A stretch of DNA of 64,000 bases from a virus. The stretch's first letter is position 1, and the number at the start of each line of letters is the position of its first letter. The position numbers and the translations under genes were made by a program. The stretch lies in IMG/VR virus record IMGVR_UViG_3300029368_000161; one strand, 5' to 3'. Below the pieces are notes generated by a model that saw nothing but the letters and a program-made list of their open reading frames with translations, made no database searches and was not told where the DNA came from. Below, piece after piece: positions 11,730-58,390 of the stretch.

Positions 11730-11780
11730 AATTTCCGAAATCCTTTGACGATTTTTCAAATGGCGCAATATGTGTATGGA
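11730..11780 (+). promoter_or_regulatory. Type-B promoter (TTGACG -35 and conserved AAATGGCGCAATATGTGTAT spacer/-10 block)
   Basis: ctttgacgatttttcaaatggcgcaatatgtgtatgg. Same block as copies at 13155, 19940, 22552, 28975, 33105, 37230, 38130, 41330, 41593. Confidence 0.55.
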
Positions 11781-11999
11781 AAAGGCATAAAAGGATTCAT
11801 GGTCCTGCCTTTTCCTGTGGAGATTCGTCTCTCCACAGACCTCCGAATTTTAAATGTATATCTATGACTGCACTGTCCTCCTGTTACGGGGCAGTACAGG
11901 AGGGGTCCACAGAGCTTTGCCAGCACTGGACACAAAGTGGCTGTTCATCCGGTTCGAGTCCGGAGGATTCCTTTCGTATAAGAAGAAAGGGGGAAAAGA
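11781..11999 (+). promoter_or_regulatory. L2 structured 5' leader (paralog of 41371-41580), ending in a T-arm-like hairpin tccggttcgagtccgga
   Basis: Shared about 80-nt block caggaggggtccacag...cacaaagtggctgttcatccggttcgagtccggaggattcc with 41455-41545. An internal hairpin ctgtggagattcgtctctccacag is present. Confidence 0.4.
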
Positions 12000-12224
12000 A
12001 TGAGCAAAGAAGCATTAACTTTGGAAGAATTAAAAAACATGCAAGGACAGCCCGTGTGGTGCCCGGACCTCAACTCTTACGGCATCATCAAGTGTGACAC
12101 GTCCGGGAAATGGAAGGGAATTCCCTATATCCACGGTTCCCAGTATTTCCCGGAATTTGGAACCTCGACGGATTTTGAATACAACATCTTAGAGCGCGGA
12201 CTTGTCTGCCAGCATATTCTCTGA
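12000..12224 (+). CDS. hypothetical protein (74 aa)
   Basis: RBS AGGGGGAAAAGA-ATG. Confidence 0.5.
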   Translation: MSKEALTLEELKNMQGQPVWCPDLNSYGIIKCDTSGKWKGIPYIHGSQYFPEFGTSTDFEYNILERGLVCQHIL

Positions 12225-12346
12225 ACCGTGGAAAAGCTGGAAACCCGCAGAAAGGAAGAAGCGGTATGAGAAATGTGTGGCCAGTCCATGCTTTTGTTTT
12301 TACAGCATAATTGTAAATTGTTTGTGATTTAAGGAGGAAAAAGAAG

Positions 12347-13084
12347 ATGTTAAACAAGTATCTTGATTTGTTGCAGCATGCGACGGAGGCGATGACGAGT
12401 GTCGGAAAGACCGGGGCTGGAGCAGCTGAATATTTTCAGGCAGTTGGATATGAGTTTCTTGTTATTGGGCTTGGATTTTTGTATCTTGTAGGAATTGTTC
12501 TGTTGGTTGCAGGACCTGTACTGGTATTTTACCATGGTGTCTTCAAAGCCGGGTTTGCTTCAAAGAAATTAAAGGAAATGTATATGATTGCGGAAGAGTA
12601 TGTCAATGCAAGTAATCAATGTAACGAATTACAGTATGATTTCGCTAACGATGGGAAGAAATGCCGTGTTGAAAATTTTGAGAAGCTGTGTGAATGTATC
12701 GGACAGTATTACAAAGCTTTCAGTAAGGATGTTGGATACGGAATGGTTCCAGGTGATACAATGGAAGAAAAGAAATGTTTTCTGAGAGAAACAAAACATC
12801 CTCACGATTTTTCATGCGGTCTTCCACGCTTGTTTGGTATATATGGGTGGTCATTTGAGAGTAGTGAATATTCAAGAATTACTAAATGGAATTTATTCGC
12901 TGATATTGCCGCACCTGGAGAGGAATCGTCAATATTTACGGGCCAGGTTAAGAAGCTGTACCCATCATCAGGCGCATTCCTTCATGACGTTAAAATTTTC
13001 AAGGCAAAATGTATATCGATCATGGCTGCGACGGTGGTCCTATATGCAATCTTTGTGCTTCCACTGTGCCTTATGTTCTTCTAG
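12347..13084 (+). CDS. hypothetical membrane protein (245 aa)
   Basis: RBS AAGGAGGAAAAAGAAG-ATG. Hydrophobic segments near the N-terminus (FLVIGLGFLYLVGIVLLVAGPVLVF) and C-terminus (IMAATVVLYAIFVLPLCLMFF). Terminator at 13100-13140. Confidence 0.6.
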   Translation: MLNKYLDLLQHATEAMTSVGKTGAGAAEYFQAVGYEFLVIGLGFLYLVGIVLLVAGPVLVFYHGVFKAGFASKKLKEMYMIAEEYVNASNQCNELQYDFANDGKKCRVENFEKLCECIGQYYKAFSKDVGYGMVPGDTMEEKKCFLRETKHPHDFSCGLPRLFGIYGWSFESSEYSRITKWNLFADIAAPGEESSIFTGQVKKLYPSSGAFLHDVKIFKAKCISIMAATVVLYAIFVLPLCLMFF

Positions 13085-13154
13085 GCTATCCAAATTTCGC
13101 ATGAGAGAGGGGGAAATTTTTTCCCTCTCTTTTTTTTATAAATTTCTCCCGAAT

Positions 13155-13195
13155 TCCTTTGACGATTCCCCAAATGGCGCAATATTTGTATTAGA
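13155..13195 (+). promoter_or_regulatory. Type-B promoter
   Basis: cctttgacgattccccaaatggcgcaatatttgtat. Confidence 0.5.
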
Positions 13196-13233: not shown

Positions 13234-13479
13234 ATGTGTAAAAAGAGGGTGAGAGGGAAAGGGAGGAAAACAAAGAAACAGCGGGAAAATCTTTACCGGT
13301 GTGGAAACGGAGAGAAAGTCCTGTTTTCGTATTCCAAGAAGCGTAAGATGGACAGAAAATCTCATGTTTCAAGCATTGCATGTGCAAGGAAAGCGGGAAA
13401 AAATTACTGGGATATGTGGGGCAGGGGTTACCCGAACCGTTCAAGAATCAGAGCGTATTTTACGTATCTGCGAATATAG
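13234..13479 (+). CDS. hypothetical small basic protein (81 aa, Lys/Arg-rich)
   Basis: Translation MCKKRVRGKGRKTKKQRENLYRCGNGEK.... A terminator follows at 13506-13535 (ccacaggaaaacctgtggttttt). Confidence 0.5.
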   Translation: MCKKRVRGKGRKTKKQRENLYRCGNGEKVLFSYSKKRKMDRKSHVSSIACARKAGKNYWDMWGRGYPNRSRIRAYFTYLRI

Positions 13480-13618
13480 CATTTTAAGGAAAACTCACTA
13501 ATTCCCACAGGAAAACCTGTGGTTTTTCGCCACAATTTTATAACTCAAAACAAAAAATTTGTGAATGATTGGATTATCTGGATATTTTTTGCTAAAGGAT
13601 CATTTGGAGGTATTGTAT

Positions 13619-19939: not shown

Positions 19940-19978
19940 TTCCTTTGACAATTTTCCAGATGGCGCAATATGTGTATT
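19940..19978 (+). promoter_or_regulatory. Type-B promoter
   Basis: cctttgacaattttccagatggcgcaatatgtgtattg. Confidence 0.5.
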
Positions 19979-20115
19979 GTAAAGGTCATAAACCGGGCTG
20001 CCAGGGTTACCGGCTGGCAGAAATCCTTTCGAAAATGTTTACGCTTCCGGGAAAACCCGGAAAGGAGCAGGAGGACAGCAGCACATGCTGCTTCCGGGTG
20101 CGATTCCCGGATGCT
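19979..20115 (+). promoter_or_regulatory. L1 structured 5' leader RNA, copy a (candidate riboswitch/attenuator) upstream of the helicase gene
   Basis: gtaaaggtcataaaccgggctgccagggttaccggctggcag...ttccgggaaaacccggaa...GGAGCAgg..agcagcacatgctgct..tccgggtgcgattcccgga-TGCTTC-tttt. About 85% identical to the copies at 33143 and 38171. The outer stem covaries across copies (GGAGCA/TGCTTC here). The T-arm-like hairpin is followed by a U-tract. Confidence 0.5.
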
Positions 20116-20184
20116 TCTTTTACAAGACCGCACGAAGCGGCGCAAAAACCACATAAACATGACAAAATACAGGGAGATTAAAAA

Positions 20185-22551: not shown

Positions 22552-22590
22552 TTTTTGACGTTTGTTTAAATGGCGCAATATTCATAACGA
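22552..22590 (+). promoter_or_regulatory. Type-B promoter driving mini-array M1
   Basis: ttttttgacgtttgtttaaatggcgcaatattcata, about 70 nt upstream of the first M1 repeat. Confidence 0.45.
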
Positions 22591-24546: not shown

Positions 24547-24802
24547 GCTATGACAATATTAAATTTTATCATTGAGTGTTGGAAGAATTCTTGCGACGAA
24601 AAAATCAAAAGGAATTATGTTGAATCCCTTGCTAAAGTGGCGGTTTCAGTGGCCATCATTATTATATCTGTTTTATTATATTTGCACATATGAAATGTAT
24701 AACGGAAATGTATATTTTGGGGGAGGAGGGGTAAGTACAAACATAATTTTTAAAAAAGTAGCGCAAAGAAAGAATTCACTAATGCAGAAGGGGCGTAACA
24801 AT

Positions 24803-26626
24803 ATGATCAACGGAGAATTAGTTGTAGATAATTTTGCGGGCGGAGGAGGAGCTTCCACAGGAATTGAACTTGCTACCGGATACAGCGTAGACATAGCTAT
24901 TAACCATGATCCGGAGGCCATTAAGATGCATAAAGTAAATCATCCCAATACAAAACACTATTGTGAAAACGTATGGGAGGTTGATCCAGTAAAAGCCTGC
25001 AAGGGGCACCCTGTCGGTCTTGCATGGTTTTCTCCGGACTGTAAGCATTTTTCCAAGGCCAAGGGGGGAAAACCGGTAGAAAAGAATATTCGCGGTCTTG
25101 CGTGGGTTGTGCTTAAATGGGCGGCACTTGTCAGACCAAGAGTTATCATGCTTGAAAATGTGGAAGAATTTCAGACATGGGGACCATGTATTCCTATCAG
25201 GGATAAAGATACAGGACGCGTTATTGTCAGCATGGTAGGAAGGCATGACAGAGAGAAGAACGAGCCGCGTACGAGGGTTGCAGATCCAGGAGAAGTTGTT
25301 CCTGTGGATCGCCAGATATTCCAACCAGATCCTAAAAGGAGCGGCCAGACATACAAAAAATGGAGAAAGCAGCTAGAAGCACTTGGATATGAGATAGATA
25401 CAAAGGAACTTGTAGCAGCTGATTATGGCGCACCTACTATGAGAAAGAGATTCTTTATGATTGCACGGTGTGATGGCAAGCCGATTGTCTGGCCGGAACC
25501 AACACATGGACCGGCAGATAGTGAAGAGGTAAAGGCAGGACTGTTAAAACCATACGTTGGAGCGTATACGCAATTGGATTTTTCTCTTCCTTGCCCGAGC
25601 ATATTTGATACGGCAGAGGAAATCAAAAGGAAATATGGAATACGCGCTGTACGTCCATTGGCGCAGAAAACAATGGATCGAATCGCAAGAGGATTGAAAA
25701 AGTTCGTATTAGACAATCCGGAGCCGTTTATTATCCAATGCAATCATGGTGGAGAGCGTAGACAAAACGACATCAAAGAGCCTTTACCTACTATTACTGG
25801 AAAACACGGATATGGAATTGTGGAACCTAAGATTGTTCCATATATGGGAACCAATACAACAAATCATCCAGGTGGAAATTGTAAAAATCCTATACATACA
25901 ATTACAACAGGAAATCAACAGTGCCTTATCAGCCCAACGCTGATTCAGTATCATTCCGAAACATCGAAGGATGAAGTCAGAGGCCAATCGATTGAAGATC
26001 CGATAATGACCGTGGATGGTTCGAACCGATACGGATTGGTCACGTCGTTTCTACATAAATATTATGACGGAGGATACACTGGAGCTGGTGATACTGTCGA
26101 AAATCCGTTACCGACAGTAACATCCTGGGATCATAACAGTCTGTGTGCAGTTAATCTGATCCAAATGAATAATCATTGCGATGGAAGGGACGTGAAGGAG
26201 CCAATTCCAACAATCACAGCAGGCGATGGTCATTTCGGAGAGGTTAGAGCATTTCTGATCAAGTATTATGGTCAGGGAACTGGACAGGATGTTAAGGAAC
26301 CTTTGGATACGGTTACATCAAGAGATCGATTTGGTTTAGTTACAATTAATGGTACCGACTATAAGATCGTGGATATCGGATTGAGGATGCTTGAACCGAA
26401 AGAACTGTATGGATGCCAGGGATTTCCAGATGATTACATCATAGACCGCGATTACACAGGGAAAAAATACCCAAGAAGCGAGCAGGTACGCAGGTGTGGA
26501 AATGCTGTATGTCCTCCGATTCCGGCTGCTCTTGTAAAAGCAAATCTTCCGGAATTATGCGTAGCGAAACGCACTGGGAATATGAAAATTCGTGAGGAAC
26601 AGACCGGGCAGCTTAGATTTGCATAA
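24803..26626 (+). CDS. DNA (cytosine-5)-methyltransferase, large, with repeat-containing target-recognition region
   Basis: Motif I DNFAGGGGASTG, PC-type motif IV FSPDCKHFSKAKGG, motif VI MLENVEEF. Six tandem P-[LI]-x-T-[IV]-T units (PLPTITGKHGYG, PIHTITTGNQQC, PIMTVDGSNRYG, PLPTVTSWDHNS, PIPTITAGDGHF, PLDTVTSRDRFG). C-terminal GCQGFPDDY...RCGNAVCPP. The ATG at 24803 is chosen over the track's upstream start. Confidence 0.8.
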   Translation: MINGELVVDNFAGGGGASTGIELATGYSVDIAINHDPEAIKMHKVNHPNTKHYCENVWEVDPVKACKGHPVGLAWFSPDCKHFSKAKGGKPVEKNIRGLAWVVLKWAALVRPRVIMLENVEEFQTWGPCIPIRDKDTGRVIVSMVGRHDREKNEPRTRVADPGEVVPVDRQIFQPDPKRSGQTYKKWRKQLEALGYEIDTKELVAADYGAPTMRKRFFMIARCDGKPIVWPEPTHGPADSEEVKAGLLKPYVGAYTQLDFSLPCPSIFDTAEEIKRKYGIRAVRPLAQKTMDRIARGLKKFVLDNPEPFIIQCNHGGERRQNDIKEPLPTITGKHGYGIVEPKIVPYMGTNTTNHPGGNCKNPIHTITTGNQQCLISPTLIQYHSETSKDEVRGQSIEDPIMTVDGSNRYGLVTSFLHKYYDGGYTGAGDTVENPLPTVTSWDHNSLCAVNLIQMNNHCDGRDVKEPIPTITAGDGHFGEVRAFLIKYYGQGTGQDVKEPLDTVTSRDRFGLVTINGTDYKIVDIGLRMLEPKELYGCQGFPDDYIIDRDYTGKKYPRSEQVRRCGNAVCPPIPAALVKANLPELCVAKRTGNMKIREEQTGQLRFA

Positions 26627-28974: not shown

Positions 28975-29012
28975 ACTTTGACGATTTTTCAAAAGGCGCA
29001 ATATGTGTAATG
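28975..29012 (+). promoter_or_regulatory. Type-B promoter
   Basis: tactttgacgatttttcaaaaggcgcaatatgtgtaatg, after the terminator aaagagtcttggaataaggctctttttttt. Confidence 0.5.
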
Positions 29013-29545: not shown

Positions 29546-30460
29546 TTAACCTGCCAGAAGCTCAGCCTCAGTGTTCGTTCTTTTATACAATCGTTCGAAT
29601 TCGTTTGGCGACATATAGTTGCAATGGCTATGAATTCGTTTCGTATTGTAGAAAGCTTCCAGATATTCAAAAATCAACTGGTATGCTTGCTTATAATCAC
29701 GGATTTTAAAGCGATTGAGCCATTCACGTTTGATAACAGAATGAAAGGATTCAATGCATGCATTATCCCACGGAAAAGCTTTCTTCGAATAACTGCGCTG
29801 CATATTTTCGGTTGCTTTTTTATATTCCTTTGCAACATATTGGCTGCCACGATCCGAATGGATAATTAATGGTTGATCGATATTTCGGCGAGCTTTGGCT
29901 TTGTTTATCGTATCAATCACGCAGGATACTTCCAGTGTTTCTGAAAGCGTCCAGGCTATGATTTTTCTGGAAAATAAATCCATAACACTGGTCAGATAGA
30001 CAAATCCATCTATTGTCCAGATGTAGGTAATATCCGAACACCAGACTGCATTCGGACGATCAGGATTAAACTGCTCATCGAGGATATTTTGTAATTCAGT
30101 GCTGAAATCGGAATCTTTTGTGGTGATCGTCCATGGTTTGCTCCACTGAGCACGGATTCCCATTTGGCGCATATATGTACCAACGGTTCTTTCCGAAATG
30201 ACTTCACCAGTTTTTCGAAGTTCTACAGTGATTTTCGGAGCACCGTAGTTCTGCTTGGAATCATCATAAATATCCTGTATTTTTGCTTTTACAGATTCAC
30301 GGCGTTTTTCTGTATCAGAAGGCACGCGGTGGAGCCATGCACGATATCCTGAACGTGAGACACCTAAAAATTTCAACATTCCGGAGACGGAAAACCGGCG
30401 TCCAGCCTTTTGGGCAGCTTCCGTCTTCTCAGACACTTCGAGATAAATGGCTTCCGTCAT
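29546..30460 (-). CDS. IS3-family transposase OrfB (DDE integrase core)
   Basis: 304 aa. ...CSDITYIWT...LIIHSDRGSQYVAKEYK...DNACIESFHSVIKREW... (DD(35)E rve fold). Confidence 0.85.
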   Translation of the reverse strand: MTEAIYLEVSEKTEAAQKAGRRFSVSGMLKFLGVSRSGYRAWLHRVPSDTEKRRESVKAKIQDIYDDSKQNYGAPKITVELRKTGEVISERTVGTYMRQMGIRAQWSKPWTITTKDSDFSTELQNILDEQFNPDRPNAVWCSDITYIWTIDGFVYLTSVMDLFSRKIIAWTLSETLEVSCVIDTINKAKARRNIDQPLIIHSDRGSQYVAKEYKKATENMQRSYSKKAFPWDNACIESFHSVIKREWLNRFKIRDYKQAYQLIFEYLEAFYNTKRIHSHCNYMSPNEFERLYKRTNTEAELLAG

Positions 30461-30741
30461 TTTCCCAGAATGTTGATTGCTTTTTTTAATACATCAAGTG
30501 CATCTTGGGCATCACGTAATTCACGTCTGAGACGGGCGATTTCTTTCTGTTCATCGGATGCGTAATTACCAGAACCCCGAACAGGAATATCACCGGATTC
30601 ACGGAAGTCTTTCAGCCACTTTGTTAGTGTGCTGTATCCGATGCCAAGATTTTCTGCACATCCACGTACTCCGAGATCTTTATGATCTTGATAGTACTGG
30701 ATTGCATCAAGTTTAAATTGTTTGTCATGTTGCTTTGCCAT
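30457..30741 (-). CDS. IS3-family transposase OrfA (HTH)
   Basis: 94 aa, MAKQHDKQFKLDAIQYYQDHKDLGVRGCAENLGIGYSTLTKWLK...RRELRDAQDALDVLKKA, with a leucine-zipper-like end. Confidence 0.8.
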   Translation of the reverse strand: MAKQHDKQFKLDAIQYYQDHKDLGVRGCAENLGIGYSTLTKWLKDFRESGDIPVRGSGNYASDEQKEIARLRRELRDAQDALDVLKKAINILGK

Positions 30742-33104: not shown

Positions 33105-33142
33105 ATCTTTGACGATTTTTCAAAAGGCGCAATATGTATAGT
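33105..33142 (+). promoter_or_regulatory. Type-B promoter
   Basis: atctttgacgatttttcaaaaggcgcaatatgtatagtg. Confidence 0.5.
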
Positions 33143-33300
33143 GTAAAGGTCATAAACCGAGCTGCCAGGGTTACCGGCTGGCAGAAAATCCTTTCGAAAA
33201 ATGTTTACGTTCCGGGAAATCCCCGGAAAGGATAGTGGGTACGCAGCGCAAGTTATTCCGGGTTCGACTCCCGGATATCCTTTTTCAAAATTGCAGGAAA
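33143..33300 (+). promoter_or_regulatory. L1 structured 5' leader RNA, copy b
   Basis: gtaaaggtcataaaccgagctgccagggttaccggctggcagaaaatcctttcgaaaaatgtttacgttccgggaaatccccggaaAGGATAgtgggtacgcagcgcaagttattccgggttcgactcccggaTATCCTTTTT. Outer stem AAAGGATA/TATCCTTT. Confidence 0.5.
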
Positions 33301-33318: not shown

Positions 33319-33624
33319 ATGGATGAACTGATCAAGAAACTTCGGATGTATGCAGACACATACAAAAAAGAACCAGCCGGACGGGAAGTTGAAGGTACCG
33401 TGGAATTGCTCGAAAATTCTGCAGATGCTTTGCAGGAAGCAGGGGAGGCTGTTCAAAAATTAAAGCAGAGATTTGTGGATGGAATAGATGTCCATTACCA
33501 GGGACATGATGCCGACGATTACATTGAGTGTCCTTTCTGCGGATACGAGGTTGCAGCGATCGACGATTACTGTGAGCTGCGCCCAAATCATTGTCCGAAA
33601 TGTGGAACAAAGCTGATATACTAG
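33319..33624 (+). CDS. hypothetical zinc-ribbon protein (about 101 aa)
   Basis: GTGGAGGAAAAGAGA-ATG start. C-terminal CPFCG...CPKCG motif. Confidence 0.5.
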   Translation: MDELIKKLRMYADTYKKEPAGREVEGTVELLENSADALQEAGEAVQKLKQRFVDGIDVHYQGHDADDYIECPFCGYEVAAIDDYCELRPNHCPKCGTKLIY

Positions 33625-34456: not shown

Positions 34457-34508
34457 GAAAGAAGCCGGGGAATCCCGACTTTTCTGCTGCATTGTGTGTA
34501 TATTTTAA

Positions 34509-35561: not shown

Positions 35562-35645
35562 AGGAACACTTCCGACGGGTGCTGCCCCGCTATCTCCGCC
35601 GTGACAGGGCGGTGACTCTGTTGTTTGTCCTCGGAAGTAAATAAG

Positions 35646-35727: not shown

Positions 35728-35732
35728 ATAAG

Positions 35733-35804
35733 CTGGTCCGGAGGGTCTCGAACCCTCAACGCCCCGGTTAACAGCCGGGTGCTCTACCATTGAGCTACGG
35801 ATCA
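35733..35804 (-). tRNA. tRNA-Asn(GTT)
   Basis: D-arm GCTC-AATGGTA-GAGC. Anticodon stem CCCGG/CCGGG with loop CTGTTAA. T-arm GAGGG-TTCGAGA-CCCTC. One A.C mismatch in the acceptor. Confidence 0.7.
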
Positions 35805-35805
35805 G

Positions 35806-35877
35806 AGCATGTGACGGGTCTCGAACCCGCCCGTCCTGCTTGGAAGGCAGGTGTGCCGCCAACAACACTTCACATGC
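35806..35877 (-). tRNA. tRNA-Gly(TCC)
   Basis: Acceptor GCATGTG/CACATGC with discriminator U. Anticodon stem CCTGC/GCAGG with loop CTTCCAA. 4-nt variable loop. T-arm GCGGG-TTCGAGA-CCCGT. Confidence 0.7.
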
Positions 35878-35942
35878 ATGCGGATAAAAGAAGTGCCTGT
35901 TTTCTCTTATCCATTCAGTTTTTTTACCGCATCGCTGCGGAG

Positions 35943-36014
35943 TGGACAGGAGTGGTAACGATCCACCCTGTAAGGATTTTCAGTCCTTCGCTAATCCATC
36001 TCAGCTACCTGTCC
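35943..36014 (-). tRNA. tRNA-Phe(GAA)-like with non-canonical T-loop (ATCGTTA)
   Basis: Acceptor GGACAGG/CCTGTCC (perfect 7 bp). 8-9 is TA. Anticodon stem AAGGA/TCCTT with loop CTGAAAA. T-arm GGTGG-ATCGTTA-CCACT lacks the T54/A58 identities. It lies 65 nt away from the main cluster. Confidence 0.45.
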
Positions 36015-36530: not shown

Positions 36531-37151
36531 TTAACAGGTTAATTCGTAGTCGTACAGATCGAGCGGCGTTTTGTTTCCGCTGGACCACTCAAACTCTTCG
36601 TTGTCCCAAATGCTGCGGGCGTTGTTCAGATTGATCTCATCCGTCAATACCTTTTCTTCGATATTAATGAACCGTTCCAAAGATTCTTTGAAGCGGTTGA
36701 TGACTTCCTCGGGATTCTTTGAATGCCAGCTGTATTCGTCGAAAAACCTTCCACTGGCGGTAATTGTTAATTTCTCGCCGTTATCCGACAATCCAGATAG
36801 TTCAAGTGTAACCATTCCCTCGGAAATATCGCTATAATATTCGCCTGGTTTGTTGGTATCGTTGATTTTGTTCCCTAGTTCTTCCGCTTTTTCCATCATG
36901 CCCCAAATTTCCCCTGGAAGCGTAAGGTAGTCTTCTGGATAGTATTCCACGGTTGGGTTGATTTCCTCTTGCAGGAGATCTTCAACAAAATTGTCTCCTT
37001 TAAAAATAGCAAAAGAGTCGACACCTCTTGCGGAAACCTCAACTTTCCCGCATTTGCATGGGAATATTTTAAAAAGTCTTCTATCTCGAGTGTCATAAGC
37101 TACTGAAAAAATGCCGCATTCTTTGCATTTAAAATTTCTTTGTGTTTTCAT
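36531..37151 (-). CDS. hypothetical protein with N-terminal zinc-ribbon (about 206 aa)
   Basis: Minus-strand ORF. AAGGGAGAAAAATC-ATG start (MKTQRNFKCKECGIF...CKCG). The track ORF extends further upstream. Confidence 0.55.
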   Translation of the reverse strand: MKTQRNFKCKECGIFSVAYDTRDRRLFKIFPCKCGKVEVSARGVDSFAIFKGDNFVEDLLQEEINPTVEYYPEDYLTLPGEIWGMMEKAEELGNKINDTNKPGEYYSDISEGMVTLELSGLSDNGEKLTITASGRFFDEYSWHSKNPEEVINRFKESLERFINIEEKVLTDEINLNNARSIWDNEEFEWSSGNKTPLDLYDYELTC

Positions 37152-37159: not shown

Positions 37160-37215
37160 TCCCTTCATCAATGGTTTTATTTACACTTTTAATATGAAAT
37201 ATTAAAAATATTTCA
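37160..37215 (-). promoter_or_regulatory. Type-A promoter/leader module on the minus strand
   Basis: Reverse complement reads tttcatattaaaagtgtaaataaaaccattgatgaagggagaaaaatcATG. Divergent from the plus-strand type-B promoter at 37230. Confidence 0.5.
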
Positions 37216-37229
37216 AAAAATTTCCCGGA

Positions 37230-37268
37230 AATTTTTGACGAAATTTCAAAAGGCGCAATATATGTAAT
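37230..37268 (+). promoter_or_regulatory. Type-B promoter
   Basis: atttttgacgaaatttcaaaaggcgcaatatatgtaatg. Confidence 0.5.
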
Positions 37269-37289
37269 GAAAGGAGGAGGAAATACAAA

Positions 37290-37781: not shown

Positions 37782-38057
37782 TTACAGATCACTTTCGATG
37801 AAAATTTGCTTTGCGATTTTTCCGATCACCCAATTTGGAATGTCGCTGCGGCATCCAGAATGGATTTCTCCGTTTTCAACAAAAAAGAATGCGGATTCTT
37901 CCGTTTTCATGCGGTCTAAAGCTTGCGCAGAAAAATATAAGGAATGGTGGAAGTCGCATCTTTGTGCCTCCTCATATGTATGGACTTCCTCTATTTTCCC
38001 ATCGATCAGGCTGACACAGCCGGACCAGAACTCTTTTCCTTCGAATATTGCTGCCAT
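37782..38057 (-). CDS. hypothetical protein (91 aa)
   Basis: Minus-strand ORF. TTGAAAGGAGCAAAAC-ATG start with a type-A motif upstream on the minus strand. Confidence 0.5.
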   Translation of the reverse strand: MAAIFEGKEFWSGCVSLIDGKIEEVHTYEEAQRCDFHHSLYFSAQALDRMKTEESAFFFVENGEIHSGCRSDIPNWVIGKIAKQIFIESDL

Positions 38058-38112
38058 GTTTTGCTCCTTTCAAAATACTTTCGTTTACACTTTCAATATG
38101 AAATGAAAATAT
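38058..38112 (-). promoter_or_regulatory. Type-A promoter/leader module on the minus strand
   Basis: Reverse complement reads tttcatattgaaagtgtaaacgaaagtattttgaaaggagcaaaacATG. Divergent from the type-B promoter at 38130. Confidence 0.5.
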
Positions 38113-38129
38113 TTCAAAACATTTCCAAA

Positions 38130-38170
38130 AACTTTTGACGATTTTTTAAATGGCGCAATATGTATCATGT
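38130..38170 (+). promoter_or_regulatory. Type-B promoter
   Basis: acttttgacgattttttaaatggcgcaatatgtatcatg. Confidence 0.5.
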
Positions 38171-38345
38171 AAAGGTCATAAACCGAGCTGCCAGGGTTAT
38201 CGGCTGGCAGAAATCTTTTCGATATTTGTTTACACTCCGGGGAAACCCGGAAGGGGTAGTGAGGACGCAGCGTGTGCTGTTTCCGGGTTCGATTCCCGGG
38301 TATCCCTTTTGACTGCCACATACGGTCTTCTCAAAATTCAGCCGT
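38171..38345 (+). promoter_or_regulatory. L1 structured 5' leader RNA, copy c
   Basis: gtaaaggtcataaaccgagctgccagggttatcggctggcag...tccggggaaacccggaa-GGGGTA-gtgaggacgcagcgtgtgctgtt-tccgggttcgattcccgg-GTATCCC-tttt. The loop change GGTTACCGG to GGTTATCGG and the outer stem GGGGTA/TATCCC covary relative to copies a and b. Confidence 0.5.
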
Positions 38346-41329: not shown

Positions 41330-41370
41330 AATCTTTTGACGATTTTTTAAAAGGCGCAATATACATATTG
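41330..41370 (+). promoter_or_regulatory. Type-B promoter (first of two tandem copies upstream of cas5c)
   Basis: atcttttgacgattttttaaaaggcgcaatatacatattgaagggataaacaggggcttaccg. The +1 region TATTGAAGGRATAAACAGGGGCTTRCCG is shared with the 41593 copy. Confidence 0.5.
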
Positions 41371-41580
41371 AAGGGATAAACAGGGGCTTACCGTTTGTTT
41401 CTTCAATAAGAGTTTTTCTCTTATATGCCTCCTTAAGTTTCCTGCGCTGCATTTACAGCATTTTGGCAGCGCAGGGGGAATCCACAGGACTGCATTTGAC
41501 GTTGTGTGGCGGCCTGCTCATCCGGTTCAACCCCGGAGGATTCCCTTACCGCTTATTTTTGCGGAGACAAAAATTTTAAA
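41371..41580 (+). promoter_or_regulatory. L2 structured leader (paralog of 11781-11999), ending in T-arm-like hairpin tccggttcaaccccgga
   Basis: cagcgcagggggaatccacaggactgcatttgacgttgtgtggcggcctgctcatccggttcaaccccggaggattccc, then a weak terminator ccgcttatttttgcgg. Confidence 0.4.
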
Positions 41581-41677: not shown

Positions 41678-41709
41678 GTTGTGCCCCTATGGGGTGCATG
41701 GGTAATAAG
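41678..41709 (+). repeat. solitary degenerate CRISPR repeat in the cas5c 5' UTR
   Basis: gttgtgcccctatggggtgcatgggtaataag versus the M3 repeat gttgcgccccattgggtgcatgggttgaaat (hairpin-forming core retained). It ends 9 nt before the cas5c ATG. Confidence 0.55.
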
Positions 41710-41717: not shown

Positions 41718-42392
41718 ATGGAAAAAGAAAAAATGGGAGTGAAACTAAAAGTCTGGGGAGATTACGCATTGTTCACCAGACCAGAACTGAAAACTGAACG
41801 GTATACATACGATGTGATGACACCGTCGGCGGCTAGAGGAATTCTGGAATCTATCTACTGGCATCCGGGACTTCGGTGGTATGTAGACAAGATTCATGTA
41901 TTAAATCCGATTGCCACTACGAGCGTGAGAAGAAATGAACTTCTCAGTAAGATACCAAAGTCAAATATGCTGCAGGCATACAACGGCGGGGATGTGAAAC
42001 TGTATAACTCGTCAAGAGACGATATTATCCAGAGGGCATCTGTTATTCTCCGGGATGTCTGCTATGTGATTGAGGCGCATTTTGAAATGACAGGGAAAGC
42101 GAGCCCAACAGACAGCCCGGCAAAGTTTATAAGTATCTTTAACAACAGGGCAAGAAAAGGGGCATGTTATTCGATGCCGTATTTTGGTGTAAGGGAATTC
42201 CCGGCACACTTTGAACTCTGCGAAGGAGATGAAAAGATCCCATCCTACTATGAAGGACTTCCGGATAAAGATCTCGGGCTGATGCTTTATGATCTGGATT
42301 ACTCCTGCGGTAGAGATATCCAGCCAATGTATTATCATGCGATTATGAAAAACGGCGTTATTGACGTTGGAAACAGTGAGGTGCTTCGATGA
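41718..42392 (+). CDS. cas5c: Cas5c (type I-C Cas5d; Cascade subunit and pre-crRNA endoribonuclease)
   Basis: N-terminus ...KLKVWGDYALFTRPELKTERYTYDVMTPSAARGILESIYWHP matches the Cas5d hallmark. 224 aa. Overlaps cas8c by ATGA. Confidence 0.8.
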   Translation: MEKEKMGVKLKVWGDYALFTRPELKTERYTYDVMTPSAARGILESIYWHPGLRWYVDKIHVLNPIATTSVRRNELLSKIPKSNMLQAYNGGDVKLYNSSRDDIIQRASVILRDVCYVIEAHFEMTGKASPTDSPAKFISIFNNRARKGACYSMPYFGVREFPAHFELCEGDEKIPSYYEGLPDKDLGLMLYDLDYSCGRDIQPMYYHAIMKNGVIDVGNSEVLR

Positions 42393-44128
42393 TCCTTCAG
42401 TCACTTGTGAAATTATATGAAACACTTGCGGATCAGGGAAAAGTGTCCCGTCCTGGCTGGTGTAATGCAAAGGTATCCTATGCGGTGGTTTTAAACCATG
42501 ATGGGACGATTAAAGATATTGTTTCCGTGAAACAGAAAGTGAAGAGAGGAAAGAAGACTGTTGAAATTCCAATAATTATGCAGGTTCCAGAGATGGTCAC
42601 CCGCGCTAACAACATTGCCTCCAGCTTTCTCTGCGAAAATGCAAAGTATCTCTTTGGGATTGACGAAAAGATGAGTTTGCGTACACTGGAATGTTTTAAG
42701 GCGGCAAAGAAAAAACATCTTGATATTCTTGATGTTGTGGATTCACCTGTAGCACAGACGGTATGTAACTTTTTCCGTTCATGGGATCCGGAACAGGCGT
42801 TGGATCAACCGGCTGTTGCAAAACTTGCAGAAGAGTTTTATAAAGGCGGAAACCTCGTTTTTGAAGTAGATGGGGAATATGTGCATGATAATGAAGAAGT
42901 CCGCAGGGCATGGATGGATTACAGCAGTGTACCATATGAAATGGTAATTGGAAGATGCCTTATTACTGGAGAGGAAGCGGAGATTGCCCGCACGCACGGG
43001 AAAATCAAAGGAGTTCCGGGAGCACAGTCATCTGGCGCGTCGCTTGTATCATTTAACGGAGCATCCCTTGAGTCTTATGAAAAAACACAGAGCTACAACG
43101 CGCCGATTAGCACCTATGCGGCGTATGCATATGTGACCGCGCTGAATTACTTGCTTTCTACGGACGGGTATCACAGCAAGGTAGGAGATTCCATGGTGGT
43201 TTTCTGGACAGATTCCGGGGATGTGGATGATGTGAGCAGACTGCGGAAGATGATGGGAAGCATCAATGAAAAGGATCACACCCCTACAGATACGGATGAA
43301 AAACTGTACGTCCTCTGCCTTGCACCAAATGCCGGGCGAATTGCAGTCCGGTTCTTCTATGAGGATGCGATCGGGGTAATCTGGGAAAACCTGTCCGAAC
43401 ATGCCAGTCGGATGAAGATTGTAAAACCAGTATTTGAGGATCAAGAATTTATCAATATCTGGCAGATGCTCATGGAGACAGTCAACCAGAATCTTACAGA
43501 TAAAACACCTGTCCCGCATATGTCAGCAATGACGTTACAGTCAGTCATTTCGGATACACCGTATCCGCAGAGTCTGTATGCAGGTGTGTTATCTCGTATC
43601 CGCGCGGAGCACAAAGGTGTTACTTACAGAAAAGCATCGATTATTAAAGCTTTTTTAATAAAGAACTACAAATGGGAGGAAGGAAAAAATATGGAAGCAT
43701 TAAATGAAGGCTGTAAGGATCGGGCATATATCCTTGGAAGACTGTTTGCGGTTATGGAAAAGGCACAGAAAGAAGCAGTTGGCAATATCAACCAGACAAT
43801 TTGTGATAAGTTTTACAATTCCGCGTGCACAACACCAAGATCGATCTTTCCAGTACTGATCAGGCTATCTAACAGTCATTTAAGTAAGTTGAAACGGACA
43901 AAACCGGGGAGAGGATATTATTTTACAGCTAAAATGCAGGATTTAATGGATAAAATTCCGGTAACAGATGATGATCCGGGATTCCCGCGGCGTTTCTCAT
44001 ATGAGGATCAGGGTAAGTTTGCACTTGGTTATTATCATCAGATGCGGGCGGAATATACAAGCAGTAAGTTAAAAGATAATGATTCAGAAGGTGATCAGAC
44101 AAATGCAGAGAATATGGAGGAAAACTAA
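42389..44128 (+). CDS. cas8c: Cas8c (Csd1, type I-C large subunit)
   Basis: 579 aa, of the size expected for Cas8c/Csd1. Assigned from the conserved order cas5c-cas8c-cas7c and translational coupling to cas5c (ATGA overlap). Confidence 0.7.
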   Translation: MILQSLVKLYETLADQGKVSRPGWCNAKVSYAVVLNHDGTIKDIVSVKQKVKRGKKTVEIPIIMQVPEMVTRANNIASSFLCENAKYLFGIDEKMSLRTLECFKAAKKKHLDILDVVDSPVAQTVCNFFRSWDPEQALDQPAVAKLAEEFYKGGNLVFEVDGEYVHDNEEVRRAWMDYSSVPYEMVIGRCLITGEEAEIARTHGKIKGVPGAQSSGASLVSFNGASLESYEKTQSYNAPISTYAAYAYVTALNYLLSTDGYHSKVGDSMVVFWTDSGDVDDVSRLRKMMGSINEKDHTPTDTDEKLYVLCLAPNAGRIAVRFFYEDAIGVIWENLSEHASRMKIVKPVFEDQEFINIWQMLMETVNQNLTDKTPVPHMSAMTLQSVISDTPYPQSLYAGVLSRIRAEHKGVTYRKASIIKAFLIKNYKWEEGKNMEALNEGCKDRAYILGRLFAVMEKAQKEAVGNINQTICDKFYNSACTTPRSIFPVLIRLSNSHLSKLKRTKPGRGYYFTAKMQDLMDKIPVTDDDPGFPRRFSYEDQGKFALGYYHQMRAEYTSSKLKDNDSEGDQTNAENMEEN

Positions 44129-44129
44129 G

Positions 44130-45041
44130 ATGAGCACACCAATTAAGAACAGATATGATTTCGTAGTATTATTCGACGTAGAGAATGGAAATCCGAACGG
44201 TGATCCGGATGCCGGAAATATGCCGAGAGTTGATCCAGAGACTGGCATCGGGCTTGTGACAGATGCCTGCATAAAGCGCAAGATCCGTAATTATGTGGAA
44301 ACTGTAAAAGAAGATGCAGCCGGGTTCAAGATCTATATTAAAGAGGGGGTCCCGCTGAACCGGAGTGACCTTAAGGCAGTCGAAAGTCTTGGTATTGACG
44401 TCGGTGACGACAAAAATGCACTTGAAGATGTAAAGAAGCTGAAAAAGACAGATGAAGATGTGGATCTTAAGCTCCGTGACTATATGTGTAGTAATTTCTA
44501 TGATATCCGTACATTTGGTGCTGTCTTGACTACCTTTACAAAGGCGGCATTAAACTGTGGGCAGGTACGTGGCCCGGTACAGATTGGTTTTGCAAAAAGT
44601 ATTGATCCTGTTTTCAGCCAGGATATTACTGTAACCAGAGTTGCAATCACAACGGAAAAGGATGCGGAAAAGAAAAATACAGAAATGGGAAGAAAGAGTA
44701 TTATTCCTTATGGACTTTACCGTGTGGAGGGATATATTTCTGCTAATCTTGCCCGTAAGACCACCGGCTTTTCTGAAGACGATCTGGAACTGCTTTGGGA
44801 AGCAATCATTAACATGTTTGAGAATGACCATTCCGCAGCACGCGGGAAGATGGCAGTGCGTGAGCTCATCGTATTCAAGCATAACAGCGAGCTTGGCAAT
44901 TGTCCATCGTACAAACTGTTTGAAACTGTTGATGTTAAGAAGAATGATGGTGTTGAGTTTCCTCGTAAATATTCCGATTATGCAGTGACTATTCATGAGG
45001 ATGCGATTCCGGATGGCGTGACAATGACTCGCAAAATCTAA
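44130..45041 (+). CDS. cas7c: Cas7c (Csd2/DevR family, type I-C backbone subunit)
   Basis: MSTPIKNRYDFVVLFDVENGNPNGDPDAGNMPRVDPETGIGLVTDACIKRKIRNYVE. The GNPNGDPD motif is the Csd2/Cas7 signature. RBS GGAGGAAAACTAAG-ATG. Confidence 0.85.
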   Translation: MSTPIKNRYDFVVLFDVENGNPNGDPDAGNMPRVDPETGIGLVTDACIKRKIRNYVETVKEDAAGFKIYIKEGVPLNRSDLKAVESLGIDVGDDKNALEDVKKLKKTDEDVDLKLRDYMCSNFYDIRTFGAVLTTFTKAALNCGQVRGPVQIGFAKSIDPVFSQDITVTRVAITTEKDAEKKNTEMGRKSIIPYGLYRVEGYISANLARKTTGFSEDDLELLWEAIINMFENDHSAARGKMAVRELIVFKHNSELGNCPSYKLFETVDVKKNDGVEFPRKYSDYAVTIHEDAIPDGVTMTRKI

Positions 45042-45290: not shown

Positions 45291-46058
45291 AGCTACGCCC
45301 CATGGAGGGGCGTATGGATTGAAAATACCGCAACAATTAAAGGCAATGAAAATCTTGTACGCTACGCCCCATGGAGGGGCGTATGGATTGAAAATGATTG
45401 TTATTGTTTTTTATTCATGGAGAGGAAAGCTACGCCCCATGGAGGGGCGTATGGATTGAAAAGTAAGGTTTCGTCTCGAAGCCTTTATTCTGTTTTGCTG
45501 CGCCCCATGGAGGGGCGTATGGATTGAAATACCAAAATCTTTTGACATTCTTATAAATGGTAACAGCTACGTCTTATGGGGTACGTATGGATTGAAATCA
45601 TAATAATTGTAGAGATCTCAATACAAAATAAAGCTGCGTCTCATGGAATACGTATGGATTGAAATGAAAAGGCGAGTTTGCGAAAGCAGATATTGGAATG
45701 TTGCGTCTCGTGGAGTACGTATGGATTGAAATTCCAACTTTAACTACATAACTATCCTGATAAACTTGCTGCACCCCATGGAGAGTGTATGGATTGAAAT
45801 TTAAAAAATCATGGATAACATCTGCGATAAGACGTTGCACCTCGCTAGGGGTGTATGGGTTGAAATTTCCATAATCGGTAGCCAATTATTATCATTAGGT
45901 GTTGCACCCCATAGAGGGTGTATGGATTGAAATTATATAAAAATGATGAATATGTAAAAAAAATAAAAGAGTTACGCTCCATGGAGTGCGTATGGCTTGA
46001 AACCTCTTATTTTTTTAAAGATATCACAATTACGCCCAAAGTGGGCTTACGTAAATTT
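45291..46058 (+). CRISPR. Type I-C CRISPR array: 11 repeats (33-34 nt, consensus GYTRCRCCCCATGGAGRGKGTATGGATTGAAAT) plus a terminal degenerate repeat; 10-11 spacers of 26-38 nt
   Basis: The repeat end GGATTGAAAT/C and internal hairpin match canonical I-C repeats. The leader side is adjacent to cas7c. Repeats degenerate toward the distal end (ttacgctccatggagtgcgtatggcttgaaac, then ttacgcccaaagtgggcttacgtaaatt, which runs into the RBS of the 46073 gene). Spacers are listed in the findings. Confidence 0.85.
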
Positions 46059-55832: not shown

Positions 55833-57649
55833 GAAAAGGACAGATTAAATTACTGGAAAAAGCAGAAAAAGAAGGATTTACAGAAGAACAGCTGGCTGTA
55901 TTACGTGGTAATCAGATGTTATACACTTTAGATTATTATTACTTTTTGCTGAAGCGTGGTGTTTCTGCTTCTGTAATTAATGCAATCATCAAAGCTGGTG
56001 AAGGATGGGGAATGCATTCGTTTGGATTCCAGTTGATGGAATGTGGTTATTCATTGGAGGATATCCTTACATATATTGAGAAAAGCAAAAAGCTGTTACT
56101 TAATCATAATTATTTTTACGAAGAGATCATGACAGGGAAAAGTAAAAATGAAACTGATGTGTCTTTGCGTAAAAGCTATGCAGAAACACTTATACAGATT
56201 CCCGAATTATTGAGTTGCCATGATCAATATATTACAAGGGCTGTCGAATTTGCAATCAATTCACGAATTTCAGTGAAAGATTTTATTGAGGAATTTTTCC
56301 CAAAGGAAGAGGATAGCTGGAAGGTCTTTAGAAACGGAAATTATAAAGATAGCCAGTATACCGCTTTACTTTCGTTTTGGCGTAACCATATTCCACATTT
56401 ATCAGACTTGTTATTGCCCAATGACAACAGTTTGTTTTACGAGCAGAAAGAAGTAGCTTTGGAAGATCAGATGAAACTTTTTATGGAAGCATGGAAAGCC
56501 CTTAACCATGTAACAGGGAAAGAACATTTCATTAAAATAAAAGACTGCCCCATGTACTACAGGAGTATTGACATTAATAAGTCAGCAGTTAATATTGATC
56601 TGGCTTCGTCTTCTTATACAAATATTAACAATGGCGAATTCCATTTTGATGCACCGGAAGTATCTATGAAACTGGTCATTTTTCATTCCGGTGGATATTA
56701 CTATAAGGGTTTCAAAGACCGGCTGTTTCCGCTTTCCTTAAAGAAATTAAGTTCCATATGGAATGATTATGGAAATCTTGGAAAACAGGTGGTTGCATTC
56801 ATCCTTGGACATGCAATGGAAAAATTAAATGCCCCGGTCATGAAGGATATCCTGCGAACATTTGAAAAAGATAATTTTATGCTGCTTCCAATCAGACTTA
56901 TCGACTGCCGAGATTCGTATAATTACAATCATCTGCTTCAGAAGAGGTGGGTTGCTGCGGATAAGATCAACTGGAGCAGGACAGACGTCAACCTTGCTTA
57001 CCTCGTAATTAAAAGTCTTCCGTACCTGGGACGTGAAATCGATAAAAAACGATTATTACAGACAAAAGATGCATCCCTGCTTGATGTGGTGGATTCTTCC
57101 TTCTGGAAGAGGAGATGGAACAACAAATGTATTTCCACTTTCCTCGGATGCTTTATTGCAGACGGTATCAGTGATGTGCCTGAAGACGGCGGTCTGAATA
57201 AGGTCAGAACCACAGCGGATGATTACATAAAAATGGCACACGAGATGCACCAAAAGGTTAAGCTTGGGTTCCGTAGCTGGAAGAAACTTAAGGATGCGCA
57301 TGACAAAATATCAAAGAAATACAAAAATCGACTTCACCGGGTGCATGTTCCAAAGAACAGCAAGTTCAACCATCTGAGGGAACTGCTCCCGGAATCCTAT
57401 GAATGGATCCGTACAGGCAGCCGTCTCCGCATGGAAGGTATTGAGATGGGACACTGTGTGAATTCTTACTGGCAATACATAAACCAGGATACCTGTGCCA
57501 TATATTCCTTTACAGCAGGAGAAAAACGCTACACTGCAGAATTCCGTGTTGGCAGTAACGGGAAATATACGGTCCGGCAGATCCAGTCAAAGTATGACAG
57601 GGGATGTCCGGCTTCTGTCCGGAAACAGGTGGGTAAGTTGATTTCCTAA
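55829..57649 (+). CDS. large hypothetical protein downstream of the MTase (possible cognate restriction/defence component; TTG start uncertain)
   Basis: 606 aa. Overlaps the MTase stop (aTTGa). No nuclease motif recognised with confidence. Confidence 0.4.
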   Translation: MRKGQIKLLEKAEKEGFTEEQLAVLRGNQMLYTLDYYYFLLKRGVSASVINAIIKAGEGWGMHSFGFQLMECGYSLEDILTYIEKSKKLLLNHNYFYEEIMTGKSKNETDVSLRKSYAETLIQIPELLSCHDQYITRAVEFAINSRISVKDFIEEFFPKEEDSWKVFRNGNYKDSQYTALLSFWRNHIPHLSDLLLPNDNSLFYEQKEVALEDQMKLFMEAWKALNHVTGKEHFIKIKDCPMYYRSIDINKSAVNIDLASSSYTNINNGEFHFDAPEVSMKLVIFHSGGYYYKGFKDRLFPLSLKKLSSIWNDYGNLGKQVVAFILGHAMEKLNAPVMKDILRTFEKDNFMLLPIRLIDCRDSYNYNHLLQKRWVAADKINWSRTDVNLAYLVIKSLPYLGREIDKKRLLQTKDASLLDVVDSSFWKRRWNNKCISTFLGCFIADGISDVPEDGGLNKVRTTADDYIKMAHEMHQKVKLGFRSWKKLKDAHDKISKKYKNRLHRVHVPKNSKFNHLRELLPESYEWIRTGSRLRMEGIEMGHCVNSYWQYINQDTCAIYSFTAGEKRYTAEFRVGSNGKYTVRQIQSKYDRGCPASVRKQVGKLIS

Positions 57650-57748
57650 TCGGTACCGGAAACAAAACTGCCGTAAGGAAAACATGACATGCGGATTTTT
57701 ATGTCATCCTTTAAATACGGAATAAGATCGGAGATTCGATAATAAATC

Positions 57749-57943
57749 ATGGGTTTTAAATTTGAAGAAAAAAACGTCAGCTTAAAATGCACTGAGTGCG
57801 GTCAGGATTACGAAGATACGCAGATAATTGTGAATGGTGTTCCGAGCTGCAAATTCCACATATGTCCGGAATGTAAAAGAAAAGTAATTGAAAAAGCTTT
57901 TGGAAAGATCAACGAAGTTAATAAGAAAGGTGATAGGAAATGA
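57749..57943 (+). CDS. small zinc-ribbon protein (64 aa)
   Basis: CTECGQDY...CKFHICPECKRK. Confidence 0.45.
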   Translation: MGFKFEEKNVSLKCTECGQDYEDTQIIVNGVPSCKFHICPECKRKVIEKAFGKINEVNKKGDRK

Positions 57944-58275
57944 ATACATGTTTTTTGATTTTTGGAATTATTTTTATAGTTGCTGGAATACTTCTCGAAA
58001 TATACGGATTGGGTAGTCATAATAAGAGGCCTATTGCGGTTTGCGAAGGTATTACGCTTGTATTATTAGGTATTGGTATGTTCATAGAACGGAATGAAAA
58101 ATCGCCTTATGAAATACAGGCAGAACTTGAGTCGGAAGCTATTGAAAACTATGATAACGGTTCAGAAGTTTATATCAATGGCAAGAAAACCGATGACATA
58201 GACATTAACGGTATTAATCTTGATAGATACAATATTAAAATCAAGGAAGGAAAAATTTACCTGATTGATAAATAA
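57940..58275 (+). CDS. membrane protein with C-terminal module DIDINGINLDRYNIKIKEGKIYLIDK (paralog of the 48328 product C-terminus)
   Basis: ATGA overlap with the previous ORF. Two TM segments. Terminator at 58278-58325. Confidence 0.5.
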   Translation: MNTCFLIFGIIFIVAGILLEIYGLGSHNKRPIAVCEGITLVLLGIGMFIERNEKSPYEIQAELESEAIENYDNGSEVYINGKKTDDIDINGINLDRYNIKIKEGKIYLIDK

Positions 58276-58349
58276 GCAGCCAAAACACAGTTCCATATTC
58301 ATGATATAGGACTGTGGTTTTTTTTGTAAGAAAATAAATAAAATTTTAA

Positions 58350-58390
58350 ATTTCCTTTGACGAATTTTGAGATGGATAAATATATATACA
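58350..58390 (+). promoter_or_regulatory. Divergent type-B-like promoter (TTGACG -35, variant spacer)
   Basis: tttcctttgacgaattttgagatggataaatatatatacag. Confidence 0.35.

Follow-up and report, generated by a model that had tools for sequence, protein, structure and literature searches.

We analysed a 64,000-nt stretch of DNA from the IMG/VR virus record IMGVR_UViG_3300029368_000161, hereinafter the window. The window is part of a large and mostly uncharacterised mobile element found in Lachnospiraceae of the human gut, and it carries a family of putative promoters designated type B. An earlier reading made from the letters alone (the sequence-only reading) had described eleven copies and had proposed that an invariant core between −35 and −10 serves as a shared operator. 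The eleven-copy family is real. Ten exact copies of the block GGCGCAATAT are present, all on the plus strand, starting at 11762, 13176, 19962, 22572, 28995, 33126, 37252, 38152, 41353 and 41615, and a variant with three mismatches lies at 58357-58383. The coordinates given earlier mark the starts of wider AT-rich modules and are accurate to ~30 nt.

All type-B copies are intergenic and co-directional with the downstream gene, RNA or array, and several lie directly 3' of terminator-like hairpins. Promoter 1 (11745-11779) comprises TTGACG (11745-11750), an 11-bp spacer, the block (11762-11771) and a predicted start at G 11779; it lies downstream of a terminator-like hairpin (11620-11645) and precedes an M-family RNA of ~200 nt, which is followed by a 74-amino-acid (aa) open reading frame (ORF). 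Promoter 2 (13159-13193) precedes a monocistronic ORF (13234-13479) for a highly basic protein of 81 aa (MCKKRVRGKGRKTKKQ...) without family match, and terminator-like hairpins stand on either side of this unit (13103-13133 and 13505-13522). Promoter 3 (19945-19979), the sole copy with TTGACA, leads into an L-family tRNA-like leader (to ~20121), behind which a 766-aa ResIII/Helicase_C helicase is encoded. Promoter 4 (22555-22589) precedes a mini-array of I-C-like repeats of the CRISPR type, with units at 22724 and 22792 and degenerate flanking units. Promoter 5 (28978-29012) serves an ORF ending at 29377 that has no Pfam match. An IS3-family insertion sequence (29546-30741, minus strand), with a helix-turn-helix (HTH) OrfA and an rve-domain transposase, is located just 3' of the promoter-5 gene.

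Promoter 6 (33109-33143) precedes an L-family tRNA-like leader (to ~33285) and then a 101-aa ORF (33319-33624). Promoter 7 (37235-37269) precedes a 110-aa ORF ending at 37622 and stands back-to-back with a minus-strand type-A-like module (TTTCATATT-N6-GTAAAT) that serves ORF 36531-37151(−). Similarly, promoter 8 (38135-38169), which leads into an L-family tRNA-like RNA (to ~38310), stands back-to-back with a minus-strand type-A module (CATATT at 38100) serving ORF 37782-38057(−). The divergent type-B(+)/type-A(−) arrangements described previously near 37160-37268 and 38058-38170 are thus real. Promoters 9 and 10 are the tandem copies of the cas operon. Specifically, cas P1 (41336-41370) precedes an M-family RNA (41370 to ~41547), and the transcript from cas P2 (41598-41632) would run through a degenerate solitary repeat (41678-41709) into cas5-cas8c-cas7 (41733-45041). 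The solitary repeat, GTTGTGCCCCTATGGGGTGCATGGGTAATAAG, lies between cas P2 and cas5, at the position where CRISPR RNA (crRNA)-like autoregulatory RNAs of cas operons have been described. The variant promoter (58357-58391), TTGACG-N11-GGATAAATAT, lies 5' of a 481-aa ORF (58479-59924). As had been proposed, the family is predicted to drive the cas operon (from a tandem pair of copies), a mini-array, several ORFs and leader RNAs with secondary structure; one correction is that three copies, not two, precede an L-type leader RNA.

Five of the ten exact copies are predicted to drive structured RNAs. The L family occupies 19979-20121, 33143-33285 and 38169-38310, and the M family (~200 nt) occupies 11779-11974 and 41370-41547, all on the plus strand. 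L and M RNAs end in an acceptor-like stem and a T-arm (GGTTCGAnTCC), followed by a T-run. The T-arm motif is found within 300 nt 3' of 14 of 109 unique promoters, versus ~3 expected, and at fixed distances. ARAGORN and Rfam (gathering and E-value modes) returned no tRNA call and no family for the downstream RNAs. In the M family, a conserved CCUCCUUA is exposed as a single strand and is similar to the anti-Shine-Dalgarno end of 16S rRNA.

The geometry of the copies is strict. TTGAC(G/A) precedes the block by exactly 11 bp in 10/10 exact copies, and this −35-like hexamer, close to TTGACA, reads TTGACG in nine and TTGACA in one (19945). The base composition predicts ~0.06 exact blocks per strand; with at most one mismatch allowed, the window contains 13 matches, whereas dinucleotide shuffles give 3.94 ± 1.9 and none of 100 has as many as 13. 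When each TTGAC[GA] site of the window was scored by the mismatches of the 10-mer placed 11 bp downstream, the distribution was bimodal, with ten sites at 0, one at 3 (58357, GGATAAATAT) and the remainder at 5 or more. The window consensus of type-B copies is aaaA.tTTt.AAAAa.TTTC.aAAat.cTTTGACGATTTTTcAAA.GGCGCAATATgTgTA.TGaAaag. Independent repeat detection also recovers the family, with flanks 60-72% identical to the reference copy for nine of the ten copies and 87% for the adjacent tandem copy. The element common to all of them is TTGAC(G/A)-N11-GGCGCAATAT; as a correction to the sequence-only reading, the flanks 'atttttcaaaa' and 'gtgtat' differ among copies.

Outside the window, the motif has a narrow distribution. 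A scan of 185,579 species genomes with the pattern TTGACG-N7-AAA-N-GGCGCAATAT gave true copies in only two, the cultured Lachnospiraceae isolate MGYG-HGUT-00136 and Roseburia faecis JCM 17581. The former has four exact matches, on contigs sharing 87% identical DNA with the window, while the chromosome of the latter has one type-B copy. Scanning metagenomes with the type-B pattern gave at least 110 loci, nearly all from the human gut, and these related loci yield about 60 distinct sequence contexts with the full type-B architecture. Among exact blocks in the related loci, 141 of 143 carry the TTGAC module; one of the two exceptions is an unrelated chance locus, and in the other the upstream half has been replaced. 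The motif scan of IMG/VR gave 71 single hits, all of which flank inspection attributes to chance, no close relative of the window was found among INPHARED phages or PLSDB plasmids, and a literature search for the 10-mer GGCGCAATAT returned only unrelated primer or enhancer matches. In the collections scanned, the type-B motif is apparently confined to one element family of human-gut Lachnospiraceae.

To describe variation in the block without ascertainment bias, we kept 48 context families, namely sites whose locus is retrievable via another exact copy. The block is exact in 25 of them. The invariance claimed for it therefore holds for the exact copies of the window and becomes a strong preference across relatives. 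The variation is unevenly spread. Positions 6-10 (AATAT) are 96-100% conserved, while position 4 is G in 33 families, T in nine and A in six (~31% vary), and positions 1, 2, 3 and 5 vary occasionally. Natural variants of the block include GACGCAATAT, AGCGCAATAT, GGCTCAATAT, GGCACAATAT, GGCGTAATAT and GGCTTAATAT. A fixed AATAT beside a variable GGCGC is what one expects of a −10 hexamer that is extended on its upstream side.

The sequence 3' of the block points to a start site. Across 64 families the consensus there is R-T-R-W-A-N-T-G-W-A-R-G, of which the first six positions are weakly conserved, n7 is T in 51/64 and n8 is G in 56/64; in the window, n8 is a purine in 11/11 copies. A pyrimidine at −1 followed by a purine at +1 is the usual signature of a transcription start. 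Many of the transcripts fold into strong 5' stem-loops in which pairing begins at n7 or n8. The 5' stem of the M-family RNA, which begins at n8, shows compensatory changes, and 18 of the 45 pairs of the whole fold covary. Because this covarying stem begins at n8, the RNA includes n8, and the start site would lie at or before it. Transcription is thus predicted to start at the conserved G of the T-G step, about 8 nt after the block. With the start in this place, a −10 element 3' of the block would fall inside the transcript, and the block itself, rather than acting as a spacer operator, would hold the −10 element.

Inspection of the hexamers at each spacing is consistent with this assignment. 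At 16, 17 and 18 bp from TTGACG the hexamers are AATATR, ATATRT and TATRTR, none of which has both A at −11 and T at −7, and no TATAAT-like hexamer was found at these distances. The sole hexamer with both bases is CAATAT, 15 bp from the −35 hexamer. Only the two copies with T after the block scored as weak sigma-70 matches (AATATT at 16 bp, 9/12). The block most likely consists of a CAATAT −10 element, with near-invariant A-11 and T-7, and an upstream GGCG extension. Three other assignments were considered and rejected. The sequence T-R-T-A-N-T (n2-n7) as the true −10 is 22 bp from TTGACG, has G at '−11' in 17/64 families and overlaps the 5' stems. A sigma-54 promoter (TGGCGC as −24, GTGTA as −12) lacks the 'GC' of the −12 element, the G in question varies, and TTGACG is left unexplained. 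A block acting as −35 with CATAAA 14-15 nt 3' as a SigE/K-like −10 finds CATAAA in several window copies only; across the 64 families this fades to weak A-richness, inside the covarying 5' RNA stems.

The proposal of the sequence-only reading, that these are sigma-A promoters in which GGCGCAATAT is the operator for an element-encoded repressor or activator coordinating all copies, has some points in its favour. Conservation of the block is strong and its position is the same in all copies, TTGACG is like a sigma-A −35 element with UP-like A-tracts upstream, some copies have a weak inverted repeat (TTTGA-N7-TCAAA) over the −35 and spacer, and a CRISPR spacer of the element matches a variant promoter region, so such promoters can be regulatory targets. 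However, the block has no conserved dyad or direct repeat, being self-complementary only in the 4-bp GCGC and ATAT. The 5-bp inverted repeat TTTGA/TCAAA is situated outside the block and is not maintained across families, and neither are the two positions ahead of the spacer AAA. Nor is the block found apart from the −35 module, given that both exceptions among the 143 exact copies are explained. There is no separate −10 of the sigma-A type for an operator to precede: the downstream candidate is 22 bp away, often has G at '−11', as noted above, and lies within or adjoins covarying 5' RNA stems. The variation, with AATAT fixed and GGCGC variable, suits a −10 element better. A search of the window for an HTH regulator, which had been suggested as a check, gave only the IS3-family transposase ORF (30457-30741, minus strand). 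The pattern of variation, the 5' stems and the lack of symmetry thus argue against a shared operator, and we consider this explanation unlikely.

The copies might also not be primarily promoters but sites of replication, partition, packaging or recombination, or recently copied promoter cassettes, as the many near-identical copies on one strand of the window could suggest. We regard this as highly improbable. Every copy is intergenic and oriented with its gene, RNA or array, often after a terminator; the flanks fall to 60-70% identity while the core is unchanged; the module is kept in about 60 contexts across many samples; and the distance to the ensuing Y-1/R+1 step and 5' RNA hairpins is fixed.

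These observations suggest, with a probability of about one half, that the type-B sites are promoters of one transcription class read by a dedicated specificity factor. In this model, an AT-rich upstream region with A-tracts and TTTCC would act like an UP element, TTGACG would serve as the −35 element, and a semi-conserved 11-bp AT-rich spacer would lead to the GGCG extension and to CAATAT as the −10 element, 15 bp from the −35 hexamer. A 7-nt discriminator would follow, with initiation at the G of the T-G step 8 nt past the block. The promoter would be read by a bacterial RNA polymerase (RNAP) core with a dedicated specificity subunit, either an alternative group-3-like sigma or a protein of equivalent function, whose gene is probably on the element. 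The element would thereby have a private, coordinately controlled regulon of the cas operon, CRISPR mini-arrays, tRNA-like small RNAs, helicases and nucleotide-metabolism genes. A dedicated subunit is invoked because neither the −10 element nor the spacing is that of the housekeeping sigma. Hallmarks of alternative sigma promoters are present, namely the 15-bp spacing, GGCG before CAATAT, and mismatch counts of either 0 or at least 3. None of the about 60 independent contexts has drifted to TATAAT at 17 bp. The sequence-only reading had listed the requirement for a specific sigma among its options, and this is the option that the evidence favours; we infer the factor itself, both the identity of the reader protein and its origin in the element. 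A promoter of a single-subunit (T7-like) RNAP or of a phage multisubunit RNAP was rejected, type B being bipartite with a TTGAC −35 and upstream A-tracts; RNAP domains were not seen in the sampled ORFs.

Several points weigh against a dedicated factor. Pfam and PHROGs scans of the window ORFs gave no gene for a sigma-70-family or other factor. A phmmer search with a SigA fragment (an approximate query) gave no hit at E ≤ 10 among 4,742 ORFs from ~1 Mb of window, flanking and related loci, which sample the element, roughly 300-355 kb in size, only in part. As TTGACG comes close to the sigma-A −35 consensus, sigma-A may take part. The predicted start site derives from RNA structure. Finally, an island in the R. 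faecis chromosome carries the promoter in a strain that appears element-free, and if that chromosomal copy is active, a host factor must suffice.

The same facts bear on a simpler explanation, in which these are plain host sigma-A promoters and the block is an idiosyncratic extended −10 and discriminator that Lachnospiraceae sigma-A favours where expression is to be very strong, whether constitutive or early, and no further factor is involved. The near-consensus −35, the UP-like element and the failure to find a sigma gene agree with it, as does the canonical type-B promoter in an R. faecis strain showing no other copies. In addition, the variant promoter of a toxin-like gene in that island (see below) has a −35 change (TTAACA) in JCM 17581, and another variant has a frameshifted ORF; both changes are expected if the promoter fires without the element. 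On the other hand, selection for strength should give TATAAT at 17 bp, as in the promoter of the tRNA array of the element, whereas 64 contexts keep CAATAT at 15 bp and never have TATAAT. Among the 185,579 species genomes, the R. faecis island is the single occurrence of the motif in a host chromosome. That the conserved block might simply be an extended −10 preferred by the host sigma-A had been raised previously as an objection to an operator. The extended −10 stands; its form is not typical of a housekeeping sigma. Sigma-A alone is thus a doubtful explanation.

Comparison with known promoter systems gives no exact counterpart. By hand comparison, type B does not match the consensus sequences of SigD, SigB, SigF/G, SigE/K, SigH, ECF or sigma-54; the nearest is SigD (GCCGATAT versus GCGCAATAT), with the wrong −35. 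The sigma-28/FliA-SigD promoter is TAAA-N15-GCCGATAA (or final T), the sigma-32 promoter is CTTGAAA-N13-14-CCCCATNT and the sigma-B promoter is GTTTAA-N12-14-GGGTAT, and in all of them the spacer is short, the −10 has a GC-rich extension and stringency is high. Like these group 3 sigma promoters, type B is bipartite, with a spacer of less than 17 bp and a GC-rich extension abutting an A/T-rich −10, and both of its elements are highly stringent and limited in use to a regulon. Unlike them, it fits no known consensus, its −35 resembles the housekeeping TTGACA, its regulon lies on a mobile element instead of the chromosome, and no cognate sigma gene was found.

Type B also shares features with the promoter classes of large phages (T4 early/middle/late, SPO1 gp28 and gp33/34, phiKZ/AR9), which likewise occur in many near-identical copies per element, and it coexists with a second class (type A, TTTCATATT-N6-GTAAAC) and with host-type promoters. 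However, T4 late and phiKZ/AR9 promoters have no −35 element while type B has one, its sequence is new, and the type-B element is only possibly a phage (it may be a plasmid), given that structural genes were not seen and IMG/VR lacks the motif. Extended −10 (TGn/TRTGn) promoters of sigma-70/sigma-A similarly have conserved duplex bases just 5' of the −10, but the type-B extension is GGCG and accompanies, rather than replaces, a well-conserved −35 at 15 bp. MerR-family promoters and the Q-binding promoter lambda PR' resemble type B in having a conserved sequence between a −35-like hexamer and the start. A MerR-type promoter was nonetheless rejected: a MerR site is a dyad within a 19-20-bp spacer that separates good −35 and −10 hexamers, while type B has 22 bp to the downstream hexamer, no dyad and no separate −10. 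The Q-binding element, in turn, serves a single late promoter, whereas type B has many copies and no regulator gene was found. An element-specific promoter class is a well-known kind; this member and its architecture are new.

One spacer of the element matches a type-B-like promoter. Spacer 4 (ACCAAAATCTTTTGACATTCTTATAAATGGTAAC; 45531-45564, plus strand) of the array at 45292 is a twelfth, partial type-B-like copy, not a promoter. It runs from the upstream flank over the −35 and the spacer and takes in the first 6 nt of the core; whether its match overlaps the conserved block had been posed as a check, and these 6 nt are the overlap. With the promoters of the element itself it shares only 15 contiguous nt. 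Its best match (33/34, with 30 contiguous) is the variant promoter TTGACATTCTTATAAATGGCAACATAT on R. faecis-type chromosomal loci (L188 10426-10459, L081 7816-7849, L111, L165 and L105). Directly 5' of the match is TTC, the canonical I-C protospacer-adjacent motif (PAM). The matched promoter precedes a 29-aa hydrophobic peptide, MITYSTLFEFCKLIVAIISLIFQIFNHKK, with a strong ribosome-binding site; the peptide appears toxin-like, resembling a type-I toxin. About 200 nt upstream, a canonical type-B promoter precedes a solitary I-C-like repeat (GTACCATACAAGTGGTACATGGATTGAAAT) with a pseudo-spacer. This island (L081 7560-8000; L188 10180-10620) lies between Pho-regulon/Fic genes and a MerR gene, and its neighbours are ordinary chromosomal genes (PhoB-like, PhoU, PstB, Fic, MerR). 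In JCM 17581 the −35 of the variant promoter reads TTAACA, and the frameshifted peptide ORF is that of one metagenomic copy.

The window has cas5d-cas8c-cas7 of type I-C, and cas3, cas1 and cas2 are not nearby. Since there is no cas3 near cas5-cas8c-cas7, silencing of the promoter rather than cleavage is plausible, and spacer 4 probably directs CRISPR-guided silencing of a host promoter. The case lends itself to direct testing, since a relative is present in a cultured isolate. Cascade-guided repression of toxin or cas promoters is known from CreTA and crRNA-like RNAs (PMC9458426, PMC8501985, bioRxiv 10.1101/2024.10.29.618823). As in these systems, the type I effector locus has no nearby nuclease gene, the guide matches a promoter with the correct PAM, a small toxin-like gene lies behind that promoter, and a solitary repeat unit is nearby. 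Unlike in them, the guide is a full-length spacer in an array of a mobile element, and the promoter and toxin are on the host chromosome. The spacer-4 case is also similar to huge-phage CRISPR systems, which have been reported to target host transcription genes. The pseudo-spacer of the solitary repeat has no target in the collected related loci or IMG/VR, and a CreA-style partial match near it (10/12, TCC flank) was rejected as within chance (~0.2 expected). For the other spacers of the window, comparison with the collected loci gave no convincing target, the only match being one of 16 nt between spacer 45666 and L172 (E=0.005).

It is possible, and in our view rather unlikely, that type B is read only by an element-borne factor and that host and element fight over the signal. 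In that case the R. faecis island would be an infection-triggered module of decoy guide and suicide gene, and spacer 4 of the element with its Cascade (the cas operon without adjacent cas3) would occupy the host promoter. In the mirror image of this scenario, the element would have planted the toxin and the host would be addicted to the Cascade of the element, an arrangement like CreTA split over two replicons.

Human-gut metagenomes contain the element in abundance, and nearly all of its genes are ORFans. The index of the assembly collection has Cas8c of the window in 288 blocks, with contigs of up to 355 kb. The large majority of window ORFs have no family match. The window also carries several mini-arrays, a 13-tRNA array (34508-36014, minus strand) and genes for an NAD-dependent ligase, a CCA-adding enzyme (6595-8043) and DNA methyltransferases, as well as the IS3 element. 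Genes near type-B loci in relatives encode NrdD, UvrD-like and other helicases, RecJ, ClpX-like AAA proteins and HNH nucleases. The type-B signature defines one regulon of the element, comprising cas genes, mini-arrays, tRNA-like small RNAs and DNA-metabolism genes. It ties the element to Roseburia/Lachnospiraceae hosts and, being machine-searchable, is a marker for relatives missed by viral and plasmid databases. A 45-bp type-B probe offers a handle for capturing the proposed specificity factor.

The element uses at least three predicted promoter classes. Type A consists of a T-rich run, TTTCATATT, 6 nt and (T)GTAAAC, followed 15-25 nt on by a conserved CGAAAGGAG ribosome-binding site. Its sites are at 1206, 4609, 5131, 5785, 9138, 9768, 10704, 14997, 17009 and 19255 on the plus strand and at 38100 and ~37190 on the minus strand. 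Type A lacks a −35-like element and serves many genes between 1 and 20 kb, in addition to the two minus-strand genes back-to-back with type-B copies. The third class is represented by the tRNA-array promoter (36415-36387, minus strand), a textbook sigma-A promoter with an extended −10, TTGACA-17-(TG)TATGAT. No other strong canonical promoter was seen in the scanned 10-50 kb. Sigma-70-type matches overall are not commoner than in shuffles (52 versus 56.6 and 49 versus 47.1).

Two further observations concern the block and the genes behind it. There is a GCGC within the block, and one of the genes of the element (24572-26626) is for a C-5 cytosine methyltransferase of 684 aa. Methylation-dependent use of the promoter is conceivable, but position 4, whose change breaks GCGC, is the one that varies in ~31% of related contexts. 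In relatives, at L113 (2360-13594), L136, L087 and ~30 other loci, an operon for a secreted protein of 323 aa and a glycine-rich giant protein of 3,745 aa lies behind a type-B promoter whose 5' leader is a hairpin (TGAAGGG...CCTTCA).

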